Shown here: one piece after another, positions 692 through 61,756 of the stretch | Layout of the letters: the number at the start of each line of letters is the position of its first letter | Numbering within the stretch: position 1 is the stretch's first letter | Assembly: GCA_018509705.1 (NCBI GenBank) | Contig: GCA_018509705.1_3630.1 | Origin: a phage | DNA: 64,000 nucleotides | Reading direction: 5' to 3' (one strand) | The notes under the pieces: model-generated | What the model saw: the letters and a program-made list of their open reading frames with translations, nothing else | Told to the model about the DNA's origin: nothing | Database searches by the model: none | Translations under genes and position numbers: made by a program

Positions 692-1246
692 TTACTCCCC
701 GCTGTCAATAGCAAAACTCATTGCAATACGGTATGCCTCTTCTAATGGTAAGAGTCTCCCCCACACATCCCAACCGACATCAAACTGTCTGCCAAACAAC
801 TGTTGTGTGGTTCCGTGAGCATGACCGAACAGTTGGACTGATCCGTGAGGCTTTCTGTTCCACTTTGCAAACTGGTAATGGCTCATACAGATCAAATTCT
901 TGTTGTGGCGAAGCTCGTAATAATCTACAACCTCATGACCGAACTCTTTCATAATTCTGACAGTCGTCCTTGTGTCATGGTTACCACGAACAAGAATAAT
1001 ATGTCCGTTCAACATATTTAGAACATCTGGGAGCAATTTGTTGATATTCTTATCATTAGTGCACGCAATATCTCCCAAGTGAAACACAGTGTCTGCAGGT
1101 GACACAACAGAGTTCCACTTGGTGATGATTCCCGCATTCATACTGTCAAGATTGTGATCATACTGAGATCTGTGTTTTTGACATGAGTCGAACTCCATGA
1201 CCCGCTGGTGGAGAAAGTGTGTGTCGCTTGTTACAAAGTATTTCAT
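692..1246 (-). CDS. Calcineurin-like metallophosphoesterase (Ser/Thr phosphatase-like)
   Basis: Motifs VTSDTHFLH, HLGDIA and VRGNHD match the metallophosphatase signature; start moved to internal Met (MKYF) to remove overlap with upstream gene. Confidence 0.75.
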   Translation of the reverse strand: MKYFVTSDTHFLHQRVMEFDSCQKHRSQYDHNLDSMNAGIITKWNSVVSPADTVFHLGDIACTNDKNINKLLPDVLNMLNGHIILVRGNHDTRTTVRIMKEFGHEVVDYYELRHNKNLICMSHYQFAKWNRKPHGSVQLFGHAHGTTQQLFGRQFDVGWDVWGRLLPLEEAYRIAMSFAIDSGE

Positions 1247-1253
1247 ACATTCC

Positions 1254-1721
1254 TCATTTAAGTTTAATGCAGTTTTTAAGCTGGCGTTCCATACGATCCA
1301 CAACCCTGTCTGGAACATCATGAATGCTTTTATTACCATGGCGGTTTTCAACCACGATCACGGTATAACTATACCCATGACTGATCGCCATGTCAATATA
1401 TTCTTGCACATATTTTTCTTTTGTAAACGTATTACTTACCACGATACGGTCGTATCCCATACGCATCATATCTTCTACGTTATCTTTGCACCATTTTGCT
1501 GCAAGTGTTACTTTACTTGCATCCCAGTTGTAATTTCCATCATCGTCGTACCAGAACATGTCGTTCTCAAAATGTGGATACAGACCTTCTAAAGATAGCG
1601 CATTTGCCAGTGTTGATTTGCCAGACCCTGGTAGACCACGCACGATATATAGCATTTTAGACATAGTAATCCTCCGTTTTAATTTCAACGATAGTATACC
1701 CAACTGTTTTGTTAATTTCAA
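1254..1721 (-). CDS. P-loop NTPase, polynucleotide-kinase-like
   Basis: Walker A GLPGSGKST near N-terminus; about 150 aa; immediately upstream of the phosphatase on same strand; start may be internal Met (MSKMLYIV). Confidence 0.6.
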   Translation of the reverse strand: MKLTKQLGILSLKLKRRITMSKMLYIVRGLPGSGKSTLANALSLEGLYPHFENDMFWYDDDGNYNWDASKVTLAAKWCKDNVEDMMRMGYDRIVVSNTFTKEKYVQEYIDMAISHGYSYTVIVVENRHGNKSIHDVPDRVVDRMERQLKNCIKLK

Positions 1722-1724
1722 GTG

Positions 1725-1758
1725 TTGACACTAGGTTATTTGTGTGGCAGGATAGACT
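1725..1758 (+). promoter_or_regulatory. Candidate sigma70-type promoter (TTGACA at 1725-1730, weak -10)
   Basis: Exact -35 hexamer upstream of first + strand gene; -10 is poor. Confidence 0.35.
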
Positions 1759-1785
1759 GACAAAATGACAAATGAGGAATGTATA

Positions 1786-2700
1786 ATGAAGTATTTTAAT
1801 GCAGACGACCTAGTTGACAAAGGTCTTGTAACCAGCAGATATTACCCAGATCTTGGGTTAAAGATCTATAAATATGCCAGAAAAGTATTCTACAACAACT
1901 TATGGCATTTGTCTCCTCGATTACTGGAGTGCCGAGGCATTGTTGTCGGTAATGAAGGAAATGTTGTGGCATGGCCCTTCACAAAAGTGTTTAACTTGGG
2001 AGAAAACTCCACCAACCTGCCTGACAATAAGCTTGTGACGGCGGTAGAGAAAAAGAACGGATTCCTTGGTGTGGTGTCATCTCATAAAGGTGAACTATTG
2101 TTCTCAACAACCGGGTCTCTTGATTCTCCATATTGTAACCTTGCAAAGGAAACCATCCAGGAGCAATGCAGTAATTTAGATCTTATCAAGAAGGTTATGG
2201 GCAATGAAAACATGACATTCATGTTTGAAATTTGTCACCCTTCAGATCCGCATATTGTTCAGGAAGATCATGGTGCATATTTGATAGGTTGCAGATATAA
2301 TGATTCTGGAATAATGCTACCAGAAGCAGCTTTAGATGGGATTGCCAAATACCTTGGTGCAAAACGTCCTCACACTGTGCGTGAAATTCCGTTCAGTTAT
2401 GCAAAAGAATTGGCTGCAGAAACAAGAGGTGAAGGGTATATGATTCGTAAGCCTTACTACCCTTATGATCTGCAGCTGAAGATTAAGTCTCCATACTATC
2501 TGGCACGGAAGGCCGTAATGAGGGGTAAAGCTTGGAAGATTTGGGATGATGATATCTTTAAACGTGTTGACGAAGAGTTTTACGGCATGGTAAACTTCAT
2601 TCGTAACAACTACACAGAGGATGTATGGAACTGCCTCCTGGAGCAGGAACGCCGTGAGATACTTGATTACTATTTCCACAACGAGAACTATATGCAATGA
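1786..2700 (+). CDS. Nucleotidyltransferase-superfamily polynucleotide ligase, probably RNA ligase
   Basis: Motif I-like EKKNGF (KxNG), motif IV EGYMIRK, motif V LKIKSP; start set at second ATG (1786) preceded by GAGGA. Confidence 0.5.
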   Translation: MKYFNADDLVDKGLVTSRYYPDLGLKIYKYARKVFYNNLWHLSPRLLECRGIVVGNEGNVVAWPFTKVFNLGENSTNLPDNKLVTAVEKKNGFLGVVSSHKGELLFSTTGSLDSPYCNLAKETIQEQCSNLDLIKKVMGNENMTFMFEICHPSDPHIVQEDHGAYLIGCRYNDSGIMLPEAALDGIAKYLGAKRPHTVREIPFSYAKELAAETRGEGYMIRKPYYPYDLQLKIKSPYYLARKAVMRGKAWKIWDDDIFKRVDEEFYGMVNFIRNNYTEDVWNCLLEQERREILDYYFHNENYMQ

Positions 2701-3047
2701 AGAAGTTGATTGTGTGGCTAGATGACTTGAGAGATCCGTCAAATTATGGGCTCCCAGACGCTATTTGGCTAAAGAATTCCTCCGAGTTTATGGATTTTAT
2801 TAACGATAATAAAAAGCTCTACAGACGCGTTTCTGAGTGGCATATGGACAACGACCTTGGAGAGGTATTCGAAGGGTACGATTGCCTATCCATGTTGGAG
2901 GAAAAGTTTGTATTTGGTAAGCCTCCTGTAGTTGACAACGTGAAGATTTTCGTGCATACTTCTAACCCATCAGCGGCTCGTAAATTCATGCTTGCGACTG
3001 ACTCGTTTAAAAAGTTTGGAATAGAGATTAAACAAAACATCTACTGA
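2697..3047 (+). CDS. Hypothetical protein
   Basis: 116-aa ORF overlapping upstream stop (ATGA coupling); no motif recognised. Confidence 0.45.
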   Translation: MKKLIVWLDDLRDPSNYGLPDAIWLKNSSEFMDFINDNKKLYRRVSEWHMDNDLGEVFEGYDCLSMLEEKFVFGKPPVVDNVKIFVHTSNPSAARKFMLATDSFKKFGIEIKQNIY

Positions 3048-3055
3048 GGACACTT

Positions 3056-3817
3056 ATGCGACGACTGATTGTTATCTCCGGTGCTGGTTTGAGTGCTGAA
3101 TCTGGTATTCCCACTTTCCGATCTGGTAGCACTGCAATGTGGGAGAATTTCAGCATCGATGAGGTGTGCAACATCCACACCTTTGCCAAGAACTACTATA
3201 AGGTGCATGACTTTTACAATGCACGTCGTGTAGCTTTAGGCAGTGTTGAGCCTAACCTTGCACATCTTCGGATCGCTGAGTGGTATTCCCGCTGGTCTGG
3301 TCGTGTGATCAACCTTACCACCAATGTAGATGATTTGCTGGAGCGTGCTGGTGTAAAACATGAAGATATTTTACATGTCCACGGGTATTTGCCAGAAATA
3401 GTCTATGAGGACGATGAAGGAAGTGACGTCATTAAGGACATTGGATACTCTGAGGTAGACGCAGGAAAGTATACCTGGGTTAAGCCTAATGTGGTGTTCT
3501 TCGGAGAAGTAGCTCCGAAGTATACAGACATGTATGACCTGTTGACTTCTCTTACGAGCAATGATATGGTTATCCTTGTAGGGTGCTCCAACACAGTTAT
3601 CAATTTTAACTGGGAGCTATTCCCTGCCTGCAATAAGGGAACCAAACTACTGATCGTTAATAAATACGACTCACAGCATCTAGAGGAGAATGGCATTTCA
3701 CGTAGTGATATTTACCAGTATGAGGATCGCGGCATCCCAGTTTGGTTTAACGGTGCGGTTGATGCCTTCTCTGATAAAACATTCATTGAGACTGTAGAAA
3801 ACTTTATGGAACTTTAA
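3056..3817 (+). CDS. Sir2-family (sirtuin-like) protein lacking the zinc-ribbon cysteines
   Basis: GAGLSAESGIPTFRSG (GAGxSxxSGIPxFR), TTNVDDLLERAG (TQNID-like), HVHG catalytic His, VVFFGE; no CxxC pairs. Confidence 0.75.
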   Translation: MRRLIVISGAGLSAESGIPTFRSGSTAMWENFSIDEVCNIHTFAKNYYKVHDFYNARRVALGSVEPNLAHLRIAEWYSRWSGRVINLTTNVDDLLERAGVKHEDILHVHGYLPEIVYEDDEGSDVIKDIGYSEVDAGKYTWVKPNVVFFGEVAPKYTDMYDLLTSLTSNDMVILVGCSNTVINFNWELFPACNKGTKLLIVNKYDSQHLEENGISRSDIYQYEDRGIPVWFNGAVDAFSDKTFIETVENFMEL

Positions 3818-3830
3818 AAGGAGACCTTTA

Positions 3831-4544
3831 ATGCTGAATACTAAATTAATTGACAACCTGGAAAAACTATCCCAACCTGAAAACTACCTTTGGTCTGCCA
3901 ACTGGGTGGAAAACTGGAACCGTGTGGCAGCTAAAGTGAAAAAATCATACACACCATTCGAATTACAGCTTAGCTTCATTGAGGAAGAGTTCAATGAAGT
4001 TTTGGAAGAGCTGGAGAAAGGTGATGGTGGAGATCACCTGCTAAAAGAGGCCTGCGATCTTCACGTTGTCACAAGTTATGCAGCTTATCTTGTTAATGAC
4101 AATCACGAAAAGTGGTCAAACCTGTTTGATAATCCACGAGGTCTTAAGTTCAAGATCGGTGAGTTCTATGACACACTGATCGCTGCGAAAAACACATCCA
4201 AGCAAAGAGCGTCAGCTTACCGTTTAGCGGAGTTGTCAACAGCTTTGCTGTTCCAGCTTCGCGGCGATGTGTGCGGGATGATGCGTAAGGTTCTCAAATC
4301 GAATGACAGCAAGTTTGCACGGGTCAACCATCTACGGTATTCACACGGTGCCAGTGCAGATATGCCTGCTGAACAACTCATCGAGTTGGAGATTAAAGAT
4401 CTTGAGCGACGCTTTGATGGTCGATATGAAGGTTTTGTTGCTAAGGAAGAATTCTACAACGGTAATAAAGTTATCATATTCCTCGACAGTAAAGGTAAGA
4501 TTATGAAGCCTTCAAGCTTCAAGGATGTAACAGAATATATTTAA
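3831..4544 (+). CDS. MazG-like nucleotide pyrophosphohydrolase (putative)
   Basis: Acidic EEEFNEVLEELEK...EACDLHVV segment resembles the MazG EExxE...D motif. Confidence 0.45.
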   Translation: MLNTKLIDNLEKLSQPENYLWSANWVENWNRVAAKVKKSYTPFELQLSFIEEEFNEVLEELEKGDGGDHLLKEACDLHVVTSYAAYLVNDNHEKWSNLFDNPRGLKFKIGEFYDTLIAAKNTSKQRASAYRLAELSTALLFQLRGDVCGMMRKVLKSNDSKFARVNHLRYSHGASADMPAEQLIELEIKDLERRFDGRYEGFVAKEEFYNGNKVIIFLDSKGKIMKPSSFKDVTEYI

Positions 4545-56009: not shown

Positions 56010-56072
56010 AATACATCGCTCTCTGTTAGTTTATGCGTATATTATACACTGCAGTTTTCAGATGTCAACCTC

Positions 56073-56267
56073 TTACAGATTGCTCCAGTACAATCGGCAT
56101 TTACATTTTGGGCAATGAGGTTCTTTTATGTAATAACCGTCAGTCTTTGGAACACTTTTTGGTGCAGTTTTAATATTGTACCTGGTAAAACATCGGAAGC
56201 AGGTTACCTCTCCGATCTGTTGATCGTTAATCCACTCGCCAGAGTAAAGCTCTTTCTTGTTTCTCAT
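56073..56267 (-). CDS. Small zinc-ribbon-like protein
   Basis: CFRC...CPKCKC cysteine pairs; start reset to internal Met. Confidence 0.4.
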   Translation of the reverse strand: MRNKKELYSGEWINDQQIGEVTCFRCFTRYNIKTAPKSVPKTDGYYIKEPHCPKCKCRLYWSNL

Positions 56268-56518
56268 AATTCTCTTCAAAATCCTCTGCAATCTTATACC
56301 AAAATCTCCAGCCAGAAAGCACACGGGAACACTTTGAGGATTGAATCTTTACTTGGCTCGGAAGTTCTTTTTCCGTATGGTAGGTAGAAATACCCTCCTG
56401 CAGATTCGAATATAGCTCCTTCGGTTGTATCTACCACAGCAAGAATTAAGATTTTAGTCTCCACAGTGCTCCCCTCTCTTAGTTGTTGTGGTGACTATAC
56501 CATCTCAAAAACCAGCTG

Positions 56519-57076
56519 TCAACACTTTTTGTACTCCACCACGATAATATCCATATCAAAAGTGGCAAGGTTAATAACGTCCTCTACGTGCTCCCACTTC
56601 AAACCGCCTATGCCGCACCCGATCTTAGGGATGTAGAATGGTAAAGTCGATCCACTGAATACCTCATTGACTAGCTCAAAGCCTTTCAGGATTGAGAAAT
56701 ATTCAGCATTAGGTCCTGGGTAGAACTGAGTATACAGATTGATTCCGTAGACAATACCTCTCGGAGATAAGTGCTCCCATCGGGAGAACGCACCCAGTTT
56801 ACTTAGGCAACCATGTCTGGTCTCTTTGTCAGCTGCCAATGCTTGAGGGAACTCACGGGTAATCTGTTTTGCTATCCCCTTGCCCATTGTGTGGAAGCAG
56901 TTACAACCGTGGATCAGGTGACCAGCACCACTCTTAAAAAGGGAGATTAAATCTCCCTCTACAGTATCAATAATCACGGTATTCCAGCTCCTCTTCTGCA
57001 ATTTCCAAAAACTCATCCCAACCCTGTGGCATATTTGAGTTGCCGAAGTGGCTTTCGTAGTAGAGATTTTTACCAC
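56519..57076 (-). CDS. Macro-domain protein (ADP-ribose binding/processing), putative
   Basis: HGCNCFHTMGKGIAKQI resembles the macro NAAN..GGG motif; PKIGCGIGGL resembles the glycine-rich phosphate-binding loop. Confidence 0.5.
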   Translation of the reverse strand: MVKISTTKATSATQICHRVGMSFWKLQKRSWNTVIIDTVEGDLISLFKSGAGHLIHGCNCFHTMGKGIAKQITREFPQALAADKETRHGCLSKLGAFSRWEHLSPRGIVYGINLYTQFYPGPNAEYFSILKGFELVNEVFSGSTLPFYIPKIGCGIGGLKWEHVEDVINLATFDMDIIVVEYKKC

Positions 57077-57392
57077 TTGGAAGGTAGAAATCTGTTACCT
57101 CATAGAATCCACAATCGTCGCACTCACCTTCTTCAAACTTGGCCTCAACCTTAATACCGAGGAAGGTGAAAAGTTTATGGATATCTTCAGTTTCGAACTC
57201 CCAGTGAATGTTGTTTTCCGCATCGGTGTAGAACTGGATCAGCAGACCATTGTCCAGTTTACCAAAATACTCTGTGAAGTAACTTCCTTCCCAGAAATCT
57301 TTATGACAAATAATATCCATGCGTTTGCCCATAATAATGGTGTGAGCGTTTTGGGCATCGTCACGAATCAGTTTTGGCATTTCATAGATCAT
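56967..57392 (-). CDS. Hypothetical protein
   Basis: 141-aa ORF overlapping downstream gene start. Confidence 0.4.
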   Translation of the reverse strand: MIYEMPKLIRDDAQNAHTIIMGKRMDIICHKDFWEGSYFTEYFGKLDNGLLIQFYTDAENNIHWEFETEDIHKLFTFLGIKVEAKFEEGECDDCGFYEVTDFYLPSGKNLYYESHFGNSNMPQGWDEFLEIAEEELEYRDY

Positions 57393-58168: not shown

Positions 58169-58229
58169 TTTTCAGATCTCCTTATACAAAAAGCCCCACC
58201 CTTTCGGGCAGGGCTATGTTAGTTATGTG

Positions 58230-61439: not shown

Positions 61440-61756
61440 GCTTCCTCGTCGTCTAAAGAGTTGAAGATTTCACCGAAGTATTCTAAGACTTCTAGCTCCC
61501 GTGTGGTGCAGAAAACACAGTCACCGTTGTCATCCTCGATAACGGCCTCTTTACCCAGCACATCTACTTCAAGTTTATCGTTCAACAGGACAGCCCCTGT
61601 GTAAACTTTGTCGGCTGTGCAGTCCCGAAAAGCAGAGTCTTTCTCCAGATAGTCTGGCTTAACCTTGGCTTTAATTCGTTGGTATTGTTTGGTCATTGCT
61701 GTGGTCCCCTTTCGTTTTGATAGGGCCATTATATTAGGCCCCATCACTGTTGTCAA
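61436..61756 (-). CDS. Hypothetical protein (AFRDCT paralog)
   Basis: Shares AF[RK]DCT block and Cys spacing with ORF 61760. Confidence 0.45.
   Translation of the reverse strand: MTTVMGPNIMALSKRKGTTAMTKQYQRIKAKVKPDYLEKDSAFRDCTADKVYTGAVLLNDKLEVDVLGKEAVIEDDNGDCVFCTTRELEVLEYFGEIFNSLDDEEA

Follow-up and report, generated by a model that had tools for sequence, protein, structure and literature searches.

A candidate Tk.4/AdfM-type macrodomain ADP-ribosylhydrolase encoded by an rV5-like Escherichia coli phage

The window, that is, the whole stretch of 64,000 nucleotides analyzed here, belongs to the genome of a Vequintavirus (rV5-like E. coli myophage). Over the 4 kb around the macrodomain gene, the identity with Vequintavirus genomes (nom and inoa, for example) is 95-97%, and the same Vequintavirus phages match the first 25 kb of the window. 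No tRNA was found in a tRNA scan of the window. The macrodomain gene lies within a long leftward block that also contains the rV5 DNA polymerase and primase/helicase genes. Its neighbors are small phage genes of unknown function and the genes for a Zn-binding protein and endonuclease VII. The coordinates of the gene, its motifs, the regulatory signals and a distant Sir2 module are collected in Table 1.

Table 1. Features of the window around the macrodomain gene and in the Sir2 module.
Feature	Position	Strand	Basis or remark
Phosphoesterase, Sir2 module	692-1351	minus	
RNA ligase 1, Sir2 module	1765-2700		
Sir2-family gene	3056-3817	plus	Pfam SIR2, 3e-27
Predicted nucleotide pyrophosphohydrolase, Sir2 module	3831-4544		
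Consensus sigma-70 promoter	56068-56041	minus	pattern match
Putative sigma-70-like promoter TTGACA-17-TATAGT, TG extension	56494..56522	minus	overlaps 3' end of the CDS; consensus scan only
Macrodomain CDS, 152 aa + stop	56519..56977	minus	ortholog of rV5 gp204 'tk.4'; homolog of T4 Tk.4/AdfM
Second glycine-rich (diphosphate-binding) loop, residues 117-125, PKIGCGIGG	56603..56629	minus	alignments
Catalytic-loop motif, residues 80-90, NLYTQFYPGPN	56708..56740	minus	family and homolog alignments
First ligand-binding loop, residues 23-36, HGCNCFHTMGKGIA	56870..56911	minus	family alignment; alignments with DarG, Poa1p and SCO6735
Shine-Dalgarno GAGGAG	56988..56993	minus	10 nt before the GTG start codon at 56977-56975; read from sequence
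Weaker promoter-like sites	57755, 57540	minus	pattern match
Strong terminator-like hairpin	58215-58192	minus	pattern match
Consensus sigma-70 promoter	61756-61728	minus	pattern match

The open reading frame is intact and terminates with TGA at 56519-56521 on the minus strand. The earlier note gave the reading frame as 56519..57076. Its 3' end stands, but its 5' end does not; the most likely start is the GTG at 56977, which gives a protein of 152 residues. The mechanical reading frame from the GTG at 57076 would overlap the upstream gene (56967-57392) in its first 33 codons (110 nt). The strand had been left unstated in that note. The 459-nt GTG-initiated coding sequence is likewise annotated in MT884008 and NC_011041. 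The relatives with this start annotated are rV5 and bov10K2, and it is also intact in a third relative, 241Ecol014PP. The GTG start overlaps the stop codon TGA of the upstream gene (56967-56969) by 11 nt, and this overlap suggests translational coupling of the macrodomain gene to the upstream gene. Comparison with three Vequintavirus orthologs revealed purifying selection (pN/pS of 0.11-0.21), indicating that the gene is real and selected.

The gene is called 'Poa1p-like family protein', 'macro domain-containing protein' or 'phosphatase' in related records. For the type phage rV5, the RefSeq record names it 'tk.4' (rv5_gp204) and notes its similarity to Tk.4 of phage RB49. The macrodomain identity is already annotated in public records. 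The anti-defense role proposed below builds on recently published work.

The putative promoter that overlaps the 3' end of the coding sequence would serve the small genes downstream and is considered locus context, not a part of the enzyme. Early or middle expression of the macrodomain gene is suggested, and the enzyme is probably made early, as the gene lies among early/replication genes with host-type sigma-70-like promoters.

Profile searches and structure prediction confirmed that the protein is a macrodomain of the ALC1/TARG1-like class. The Pfam Macro profile (PF01661) matches with an E-value of 1.7e-6 and 28.4 bits, above the gathering cutoff of 22 bits, and PHROG 335 matches at 3e-58. 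The AlphaFold2 model, built from 51 homologs, has a mean pLDDT of 96.4 and a pTM of 0.91, and the predicted fold is the three-layer alpha/beta macro fold. The best Foldseek matches are the macrodomains of TARG1, Poa1p and DarG, with query-normalized TM-scores of 0.72-0.79. BT1257 and SCO6735 are other close PDB matches in fold. At E<=1e-3, the model has 177 matches in the PDB; the best 50 of the 177 are nearly all macrodomains or macrodomain-scaffold designs, and all of the top 19 are of the ALC1/TARG1-like class. When the family profile was compared with PDB sequences, every match between 3e-17 and 1e-10 was an ALC1/TARG1-like macrodomain: a DarG macrodomain (3e-17), BT1257, TARG1, SCO6735, a second DarG macrodomain, Poa1p and the Thermosipho DarTG fusion. 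The profile and structure searches that the earlier note had suggested both return macro families, in agreement with its description of a macro-domain-like protein. A window-wide search found one macrodomain only.

The sole PADLOC match is DarG (6e-14, for the macro part), and the corresponding match of T4 AdfM is weaker (4e-9). The NCBIfam model antitoxin_DarG (NF048014) matches at positions 3-141 of 338 with 47.8 bits versus the cutoff of 250 bits; the score falls below the cutoff because the N-terminal macro part alone is present.

The glycine-rich motifs mentioned in the earlier note correspond to two predicted ligand-binding loops, HGCNCFHTMGKGIA and PKIGCGIGG. In the first loop, H23, N26 and K33 align with H24, N27 and K34 of SCO6735, and N26 also aligns with N22 of DarG. 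In the catalytic loop, Gln84 sits at the position occupied by Lys80 in DarG, Lys84 in TARG1 and Gln85 in SCO6735. This loop is short, and its length and motif are equal to those of T4 Tk.4. In the second glycine-rich loop, a Gly is at the position of the catalytic Asp125 of TARG1. Neither the catalytic Lys of TARG1 and DarG nor the catalytic Asp of TARG1 is therefore present, and the Gln in place of the Lys is the feature of the SCO6735 subtype. Eight positions (G24, N26, G34, A36, N80, Q84, P117 and G120) do not vary among 51 family members, and the conservation of H23 is 90% or more.

The Gln-type macrodomain SCO6735 from S. coelicolor (PDB 5E3B) has been characterized: Gln85 is essential, the enzyme outpaces DarG and TARG1 in removing thymidine-linked ADP-ribose from DNA, and it neutralizes DarT (PMC9411070). 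DarG, TARG1 and SCO6735 are all ALC1-like, and each of them removes dT-ADPr from DNA (PMC9411070). SCO6735 and Bacteroides BT1257 (2FG1) resemble the window protein in being stand-alone and in having Gln at the catalytic-Lys position, with Q85 corresponding to Q84. They are only ~22% identical to it; the 'mobile loop' after the Gln is 5 residues longer in them, and K89 is not conserved here.

The macrodomain of DarG (T. aquaticus/M. tuberculosis; 5M31, 5M3E and 5M3I) is the best PDB profile match and has the same fold, the equivalent of N22, and the MGKGIA loop in common. In contrast to DarG, which has ~330-340 residues, the protein of 152 residues is without the C-terminal DarT-binding domain, and no darT is adjacent; no DarT was found among the neighbors with Pfam and PHROGs. 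Human TARG1/OARD1 (TM 0.78/0.85) and yeast Poa1p (E ~6e-10) are the best structural matches, although they are 22-25% identical to the window protein. The Lys84/Asp125 dyad of TARG1 is replaced by Gln/Gly, and Poa1p is larger, with insertions.

Homologs of the window protein were found by tblastn in 2,779 of 50,697 phage records (~5%). The carriers include T4-like phages, Pakpunavirus, FelixO1-like phages, Ackermannviridae and Vibrio phages. T4 Tk.4 is homologous over its full length (40% identity over 150 of the 152 residues, tblastn E=2e-30). Both proteins are stand-alone macrodomains of ~152-155 residues with the motifs HGCNCFHTMG, NLYTQFxPGPNxEY and IG[CA]GIG, with equal loop lengths and motif spacing, and neither gene adjoins NARP1 genes. 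They differ in 60% of residues. The genes vs, tk.3 and tk are the neighbors in T4, in contrast to the small genes of unknown function here, and the anti-DarTG2 phenotype is demonstrated for T4 alone.

That phenotype was recently reported in a preprint (bioRxiv 10.1101/2025.11.20.689424). In a transposon screen of T4, tk.4 was the single significant match to turn conditionally essential when the host carried DarTG2. Clean deletion of tk.4 sensitized T4 to DarTG2, and the gene was renamed adfM; this evidence is genetic. The sole phenotype found for T4 tk.4 was DarTG2-specific. T5, in which a search found no macrodomain (see below), is strongly restricted by DarTG2, and this also speaks for the AdfM-type reading. 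According to the HIDEN-SEQ supplements, T4 tk.4 is dispensable on E. coli K-12, and in the transposon data there for the Vequintavirus Bas54, the ortholog carries no label and has no usable entry.

Another phage macrodomain, gp104 (AdfM) of the chimallivirus PhiKZ, is DarG2-like and removes DarT2-made ADP-ribose from DNA (Cell Rep 2026, PMC13309987). It is also stand-alone and of the ALC1-like class, but belongs to another lineage. It is 23% identical to the window protein, and the family profile scores 46 bits for it versus 167 bits for T4 Tk.4. It keeps the catalytic Lys of DarG (FPTK), has a PADLOC DarG score of 133 bits versus 50 bits here, and is imported into the phage nucleus. AdfB of phage ICP1, considered as a candidate relative, was rejected as it is not a macrodomain.

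Bacterial homologs were searched in one genome per bacterial species, with an alignment of 11 closer sequences as the query. The best 80 bacterial loci encode stand-alone macrodomains with a median length of ~150-152 residues (range 150-262) and 35-45% identity. Their hosts are Desulfobacteraceae, Shewanella, Ruegeria, Bacteroidota, Verrucomicrobia and Planctomycetes. Of these 80 loci, 79 carry the Gln motif N[AG]Y[TS]Q, and the remaining one has NAYIQ. The commonest neighbor family is seen at 11 of the 80 loci and looks like housekeeping synteny. The 150 neighboring ORFs matched 55 PADLOC families, and the 25 most frequent of these do not include DarT. An origin as an 'orphan antitoxin' derived from DarG is unsupported for this lineage, as its nearest relatives in cells are encoded on their own in chromosomes and DarT does not show among these frequent neighbor families. 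By these comparisons, the phage family appears nearer to stand-alone cellular enzymes than to DarG. The bacterial neighborhoods bear on the origin and say nothing about the function.

Based on the 40% identity to T4 Tk.4 and the genetics of T4 tk.4, we infer an anti-DarTG2 role. The gene product is probably a Tk.4/AdfM-type ADP-ribosylhydrolase that counters DarTG2 by de-ADP-ribosylation of DNA. The earlier note had offered, as one option, the reversal of host defense based on ADP-ribosylation, and this option agrees with the action of the T4 homolog against DarTG2.

In the proposed mechanism, the two glycine-rich loops would hold the ADP-ribose moiety. The enzyme would hydrolyze the C1'' bond of the ADP-ribose on thymidine, which is added to single-stranded phage DNA by the host DarT2. 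The presumed substrate is dT-ADPr in DNA. Catalysis would follow the route of SCO6735 and not the Lys route of DarG and TARG1; Gln84 would position the distal ribose, and an activated water would attack. Replicable DNA would be restored, and the phage would escape DarTG2. A side activity on ADPR-1''-phosphate or on other 1''-linked ADP-ribose conjugates may also be present.

There are counterpoints to the AdfM-type reading. It carries function over across 40% identity. Adpp, which is similarly distant (31-35%), is a proven ADPR-1''P phosphatase. The catalytic Lys and the DarT-binding C-terminal domain of DarG are missing here.

Adpp from Vibrio phage Gary dephosphorylates ADPR-1P, as detected by LC-MS, and counters the aRES defense (bioRxiv 10.64898/2026.01.28.702374). 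An Adpp-like function of the window protein, that is, a phosphatase converting the ADPR-1P produced by RES-domain (aRES) NADases into ADPR within NAD+ rescue, is unlikely but ranks second. Several features agree with it. Gary Adpp is a stand-alone protein of ~158 residues in the same Gln-type, Poa1p-like macrodomain family. The database labels 'phosphatase' and 'Poa1p-like' point in the same direction, and H23 and T30 match H23 and S30 of Poa1p, the residues mutated for the solved structures. Adpp is, however, useful only with Adps and Namat, and the Gary gene lies between these two genes. No homologs of Adps or Namat were found in the window or in 57 kb of rV5 (64.9-100 kb and 108-130 kb), with the best E-value of 1.2. 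No ~136-kb Escherichia phage and no Vequintavirus was seen in a spread sample of 2,041 phage records with Namat. The earlier note had suggested a phage-encoded NAD/ADP-ribose axis, and such a broader link is not empty, as the relative Adpp works in NAD+ reconstitution, dependent on the NARP1 genes.

The motifs also separate the window protein from Adpp. Gary Adpp carries HQ, YGQY and GCGLAG, and its loop is longer by 7 residues. The ortholog from Vibrio phage Pontus shares 94.9% identity with Gary Adpp and 31-35% with the window protein. The two NARP1-adjacent macrodomains (Pontus and Pakpunavirus EM), the only sequences from which the Adpp signature was derived, share HQxNCF, N[VL]YGQY, GCGLAG and a loop longer by 4-7 residues. 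In contrast, the macrodomains of the window, rV5, T4 and a FelixO1-like phage, the last one not adjacent to NARP1, share HGCNC, NLYTQ[FL] with a short loop, and G[CA]GIGG. PGPNxEY in the catalytic loop is also common to the window, rV5 and T4. The window protein, with HGCNCF, YTQF plus the short loop, and GCGIGG, lacks the features common to the two NARP1-adjacent macrodomains and is nearer to T4 Tk.4.

In the neighbor-joining tree (200 bootstraps), the whole Gln-type family is apart from PhiKZ and TARG1 with 73% support. The window protein, T4 Tk.4 and other short-loop phage sequences group together with a bootstrap value of 14%. The deep branches are without resolution, so the choice between AdfM and Adpp was based on motif and indel characters instead. 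Since Adpp without NARP1 would leave NAD+ unrestored, and given the motif differences, the AdfM-type is ranked first and the Adpp-type second.

In a third reading, which is doubtful, the protein is an eraser of ADP-ribose on another macromolecule, such as a host or phage protein or RNA that an ADP-ribosyltransferase from bacteria or phages has modified, or a degrader of an ADPR-derived immune signal. TARG1 and SCO6735 also de-modify Glu/Asp-ADP-ribosylated proteins (PMC9411070), and the stand-alone, housekeeping-like bacterial homologs suggest a general repair role. The specificity of the T4 phenotype for DarTG2 speaks against this reading.

As reported in the earlier note, a Sir2-like gene is present in the same genome. 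It appears to sit in an RNA-repair-like module, together with genes for a phosphoesterase, RNA ligase 1 and a predicted nucleotide pyrophosphohydrolase (Table 1). Macrodomains can deacylate OAADPr, and Poa1p processes ADPR-1''P, a by-product of tRNA splicing. It is conceivable, though improbable, that the window protein is a dual-substrate C1''-hydrolase that acts on both DarT2-modified thymidine DNA and ADPR-1''-phosphate/ADPR>P products. In Vequintaviruses, such an enzyme would also clear the by-product left when the phage Sir2 in the RNA-ligase module takes off RNA 2'-phosphates in a KptA-like manner. The Sir2 axis would then exist at the metabolite level without gene linkage, and the sharp allelic divergence of the macrodomain gene within the genus would represent selection by diverse host ADP-ribosylating systems.

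The direct pairing of the two genes proposed in the earlier note is unsupported. In its favor are their presence in one genome and the RNA-repair-like context of Sir2. In Vibrio phage Pontus, the same set of genes, for an RNA ligase, an ATPase and a phosphoesterase, is directly upstream of the Adps-macro-Namat block. This arrangement indicates that NAD/ADPR modules and the RNA-repair module associate in some phages, and the pairing therefore keeps a small probability. Against it, 52.7 kb separate the two genes, which lie on opposite strands and belong to different modules and transcription units. Their distributions are also uncoupled. The macrodomain is present in 2,779 phage records and Sir2 in 1,024, mostly in different phage groups in spread samples. 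T4-like phages represent ~25 of 60 sampled macrodomain carriers but, two KVP40-type Vibrio phages aside, none of 40 sampled Sir2 carriers. T5-like phages account for roughly half of the Sir2 carriers sampled and for none of the 60 sampled macrodomain carriers. T5 itself has a Sir2 ortholog (E=9e-101), whereas no macrodomain was found in its 121.7 kb (best 8.9 bits, filters off). In SirTM/Macro two-gene systems, the sirtuin and macrodomain genes are adjacent and co-transcribed, in contrast to the distant genes here. The Sir2 module fits a phage sirtuin clade that a published survey linked to RNA-end repair; the survey noted no coupling of this clade to an adjacent macrodomain gene (PMC9503650). 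The co-presence of Sir2 and the macrodomain looks like a coincidence within a large genome, and it is very improbable that the macrodomain hydrolyzes the Sir2 product, either O-acyl-ADP-ribose or the ADPR>P/ADPR-1''P from KptA-like removal of RNA 2'-phosphate.

If the AdfM-type reading is true, rV5-like phages, which have a broad host range and are therapeutic candidates, already possess a means to counter DarTG2, and this would help to predict which defense systems fail against them. The newly named AdfM family would then reach a second large group of E. coli phages. The anti-defense family itself is already known, and the Vequintavirus protein would be a further member of it. The anti-DarT-type and the NARP1-linked macrodomains are currently all annotated as 'phosphatase'. 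The short NLYTQF-PGPN loop versus the long YGQY loop may tell anti-DarT macrodomains apart from ADPR-1P phosphatases linked to NARP1, a rule with few sequences behind it.

Between the window and rV5, nucleotide identity drops to 75-76% at window 56496-56895, and this drop coincides exactly with the macrodomain gene; the flanking sequences are 94-100% identical. An alignment of the two macrodomain proteins gives 82% identity, with a pN/pS of ~0.19 for the gene. Homologues detected with tblastn fall into several identity classes (95-99%, 48 records; 90-95%, 24 records; 80-90%, 41 records). This pattern looks like the result of recombination replacing the allele at an anti-defence locus.

The rV5 counterpart of the small zinc-binding-domain protein listed in the table is gp201, which is annotated as similar to NP_891661 of phage RB49. 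This accession adjoins that of RB49 Tk.4 (NP_891662). The adjacency hints that the micro-synteny of tk.4 regions is conserved between T4-like and rV5-like phages. The scan for promoter-like sites yielded 29, about twice the 13.3 expected from shuffled sequences. A scan of the whole window (1-64000) turned up neither tRNA nor tmRNA genes.

Features of the window around the macrodomain gene and in the Sir2 module
Feature	Position (window)	Strand	Basis or remark
Phosphoesterase	692-1351	-	Sir2 module
RNA ligase 1	1765-2700	+	Sir2 module
Sir2-like gene	3056-3817	+	Sir2 module
Predicted nucleotide pyrophosphohydrolase	3831-4544	+	Sir2 module; without Pfam match
Putative sigma-70 consensus promoter, 12/12	56041-56068	-	Consensus scan
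Small protein, Pfam "Phage zinc binding domain"	56073-56324	-	PF23903, 1.8e-22
Putative sigma-70-like promoter, 11/12 with TG extension	56494-56522	-	Consensus scan
Strong terminator-like hairpin	58192-58215	-	10 bp stem, 7 GC pairs, T-run
Putative sigma-70 consensus promoter, 12/12	61728-61756	-	Consensus scan

The module at 692-4544 resembles the published gene context of phage sirtuins and RNA repair. In Vibrio phage Pontus (L090, 644-6195), genes for an RNA ligase, an ATPase, and a phosphoesterase are located immediately upstream of an Adps-macro-Namat (NARP1-AP) block. Genes of these three kinds also accompany Sir2 in rV5, where their order differs. Thus, the NAD-rebuilding module neighbours the three genes that also flank the Sir2 module of rV5-like phages. 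The Pakpunavirus macrodomain of Pseudomonas phage EM (L091, 1273-4222) is located between Namat-like phosphoribosyltransferase and DprA/SLOG-like genes, and this region is a possible extended NAD/ADPR module.

In Escherichia phage vB_EcoM_E9 (L092, 2995-3780), a 261-aa protein carries the Tk.4-type macrodomain as its N-terminal half, followed by a C-terminal extension of ~110 aa. This phage is similar to FelixO1-like phages, and its record is classified no lower than Caudoviricetes. At six Desulfobacteraceae loci (L010, L014, L023, L052, L064, and L082), a ~200-aa protein is encoded at most ~2 kb from a stand-alone Gln-type macrodomain. It contains a Nudix-box-like motif, as judged by eye, and is possibly an ADP-ribose pyrophosphatase. 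The proximity of the two genes may be mere lineage synteny.

Some database labels are doubtful. In RefSeq, T5.105 of phage T5 (L007, 7789-8295) is labelled "Sir2 (NAD-dependent deacetylase)", although this 168-aa ORF is distinct from the real Sir2, T5.102, and lies downstream of it. It showed no match to the window Sir2 at E<=1e-3, and this label is probably wrong. Between 16 and 26 "Campylobacter phage" records, with C. jejuni given as the host, show 95-99% identity to the E. coli rV5-like genome of the window, and they include a Sir2 99.6% identical to that of the window. These records are probably mislabelled or contaminant assemblies.
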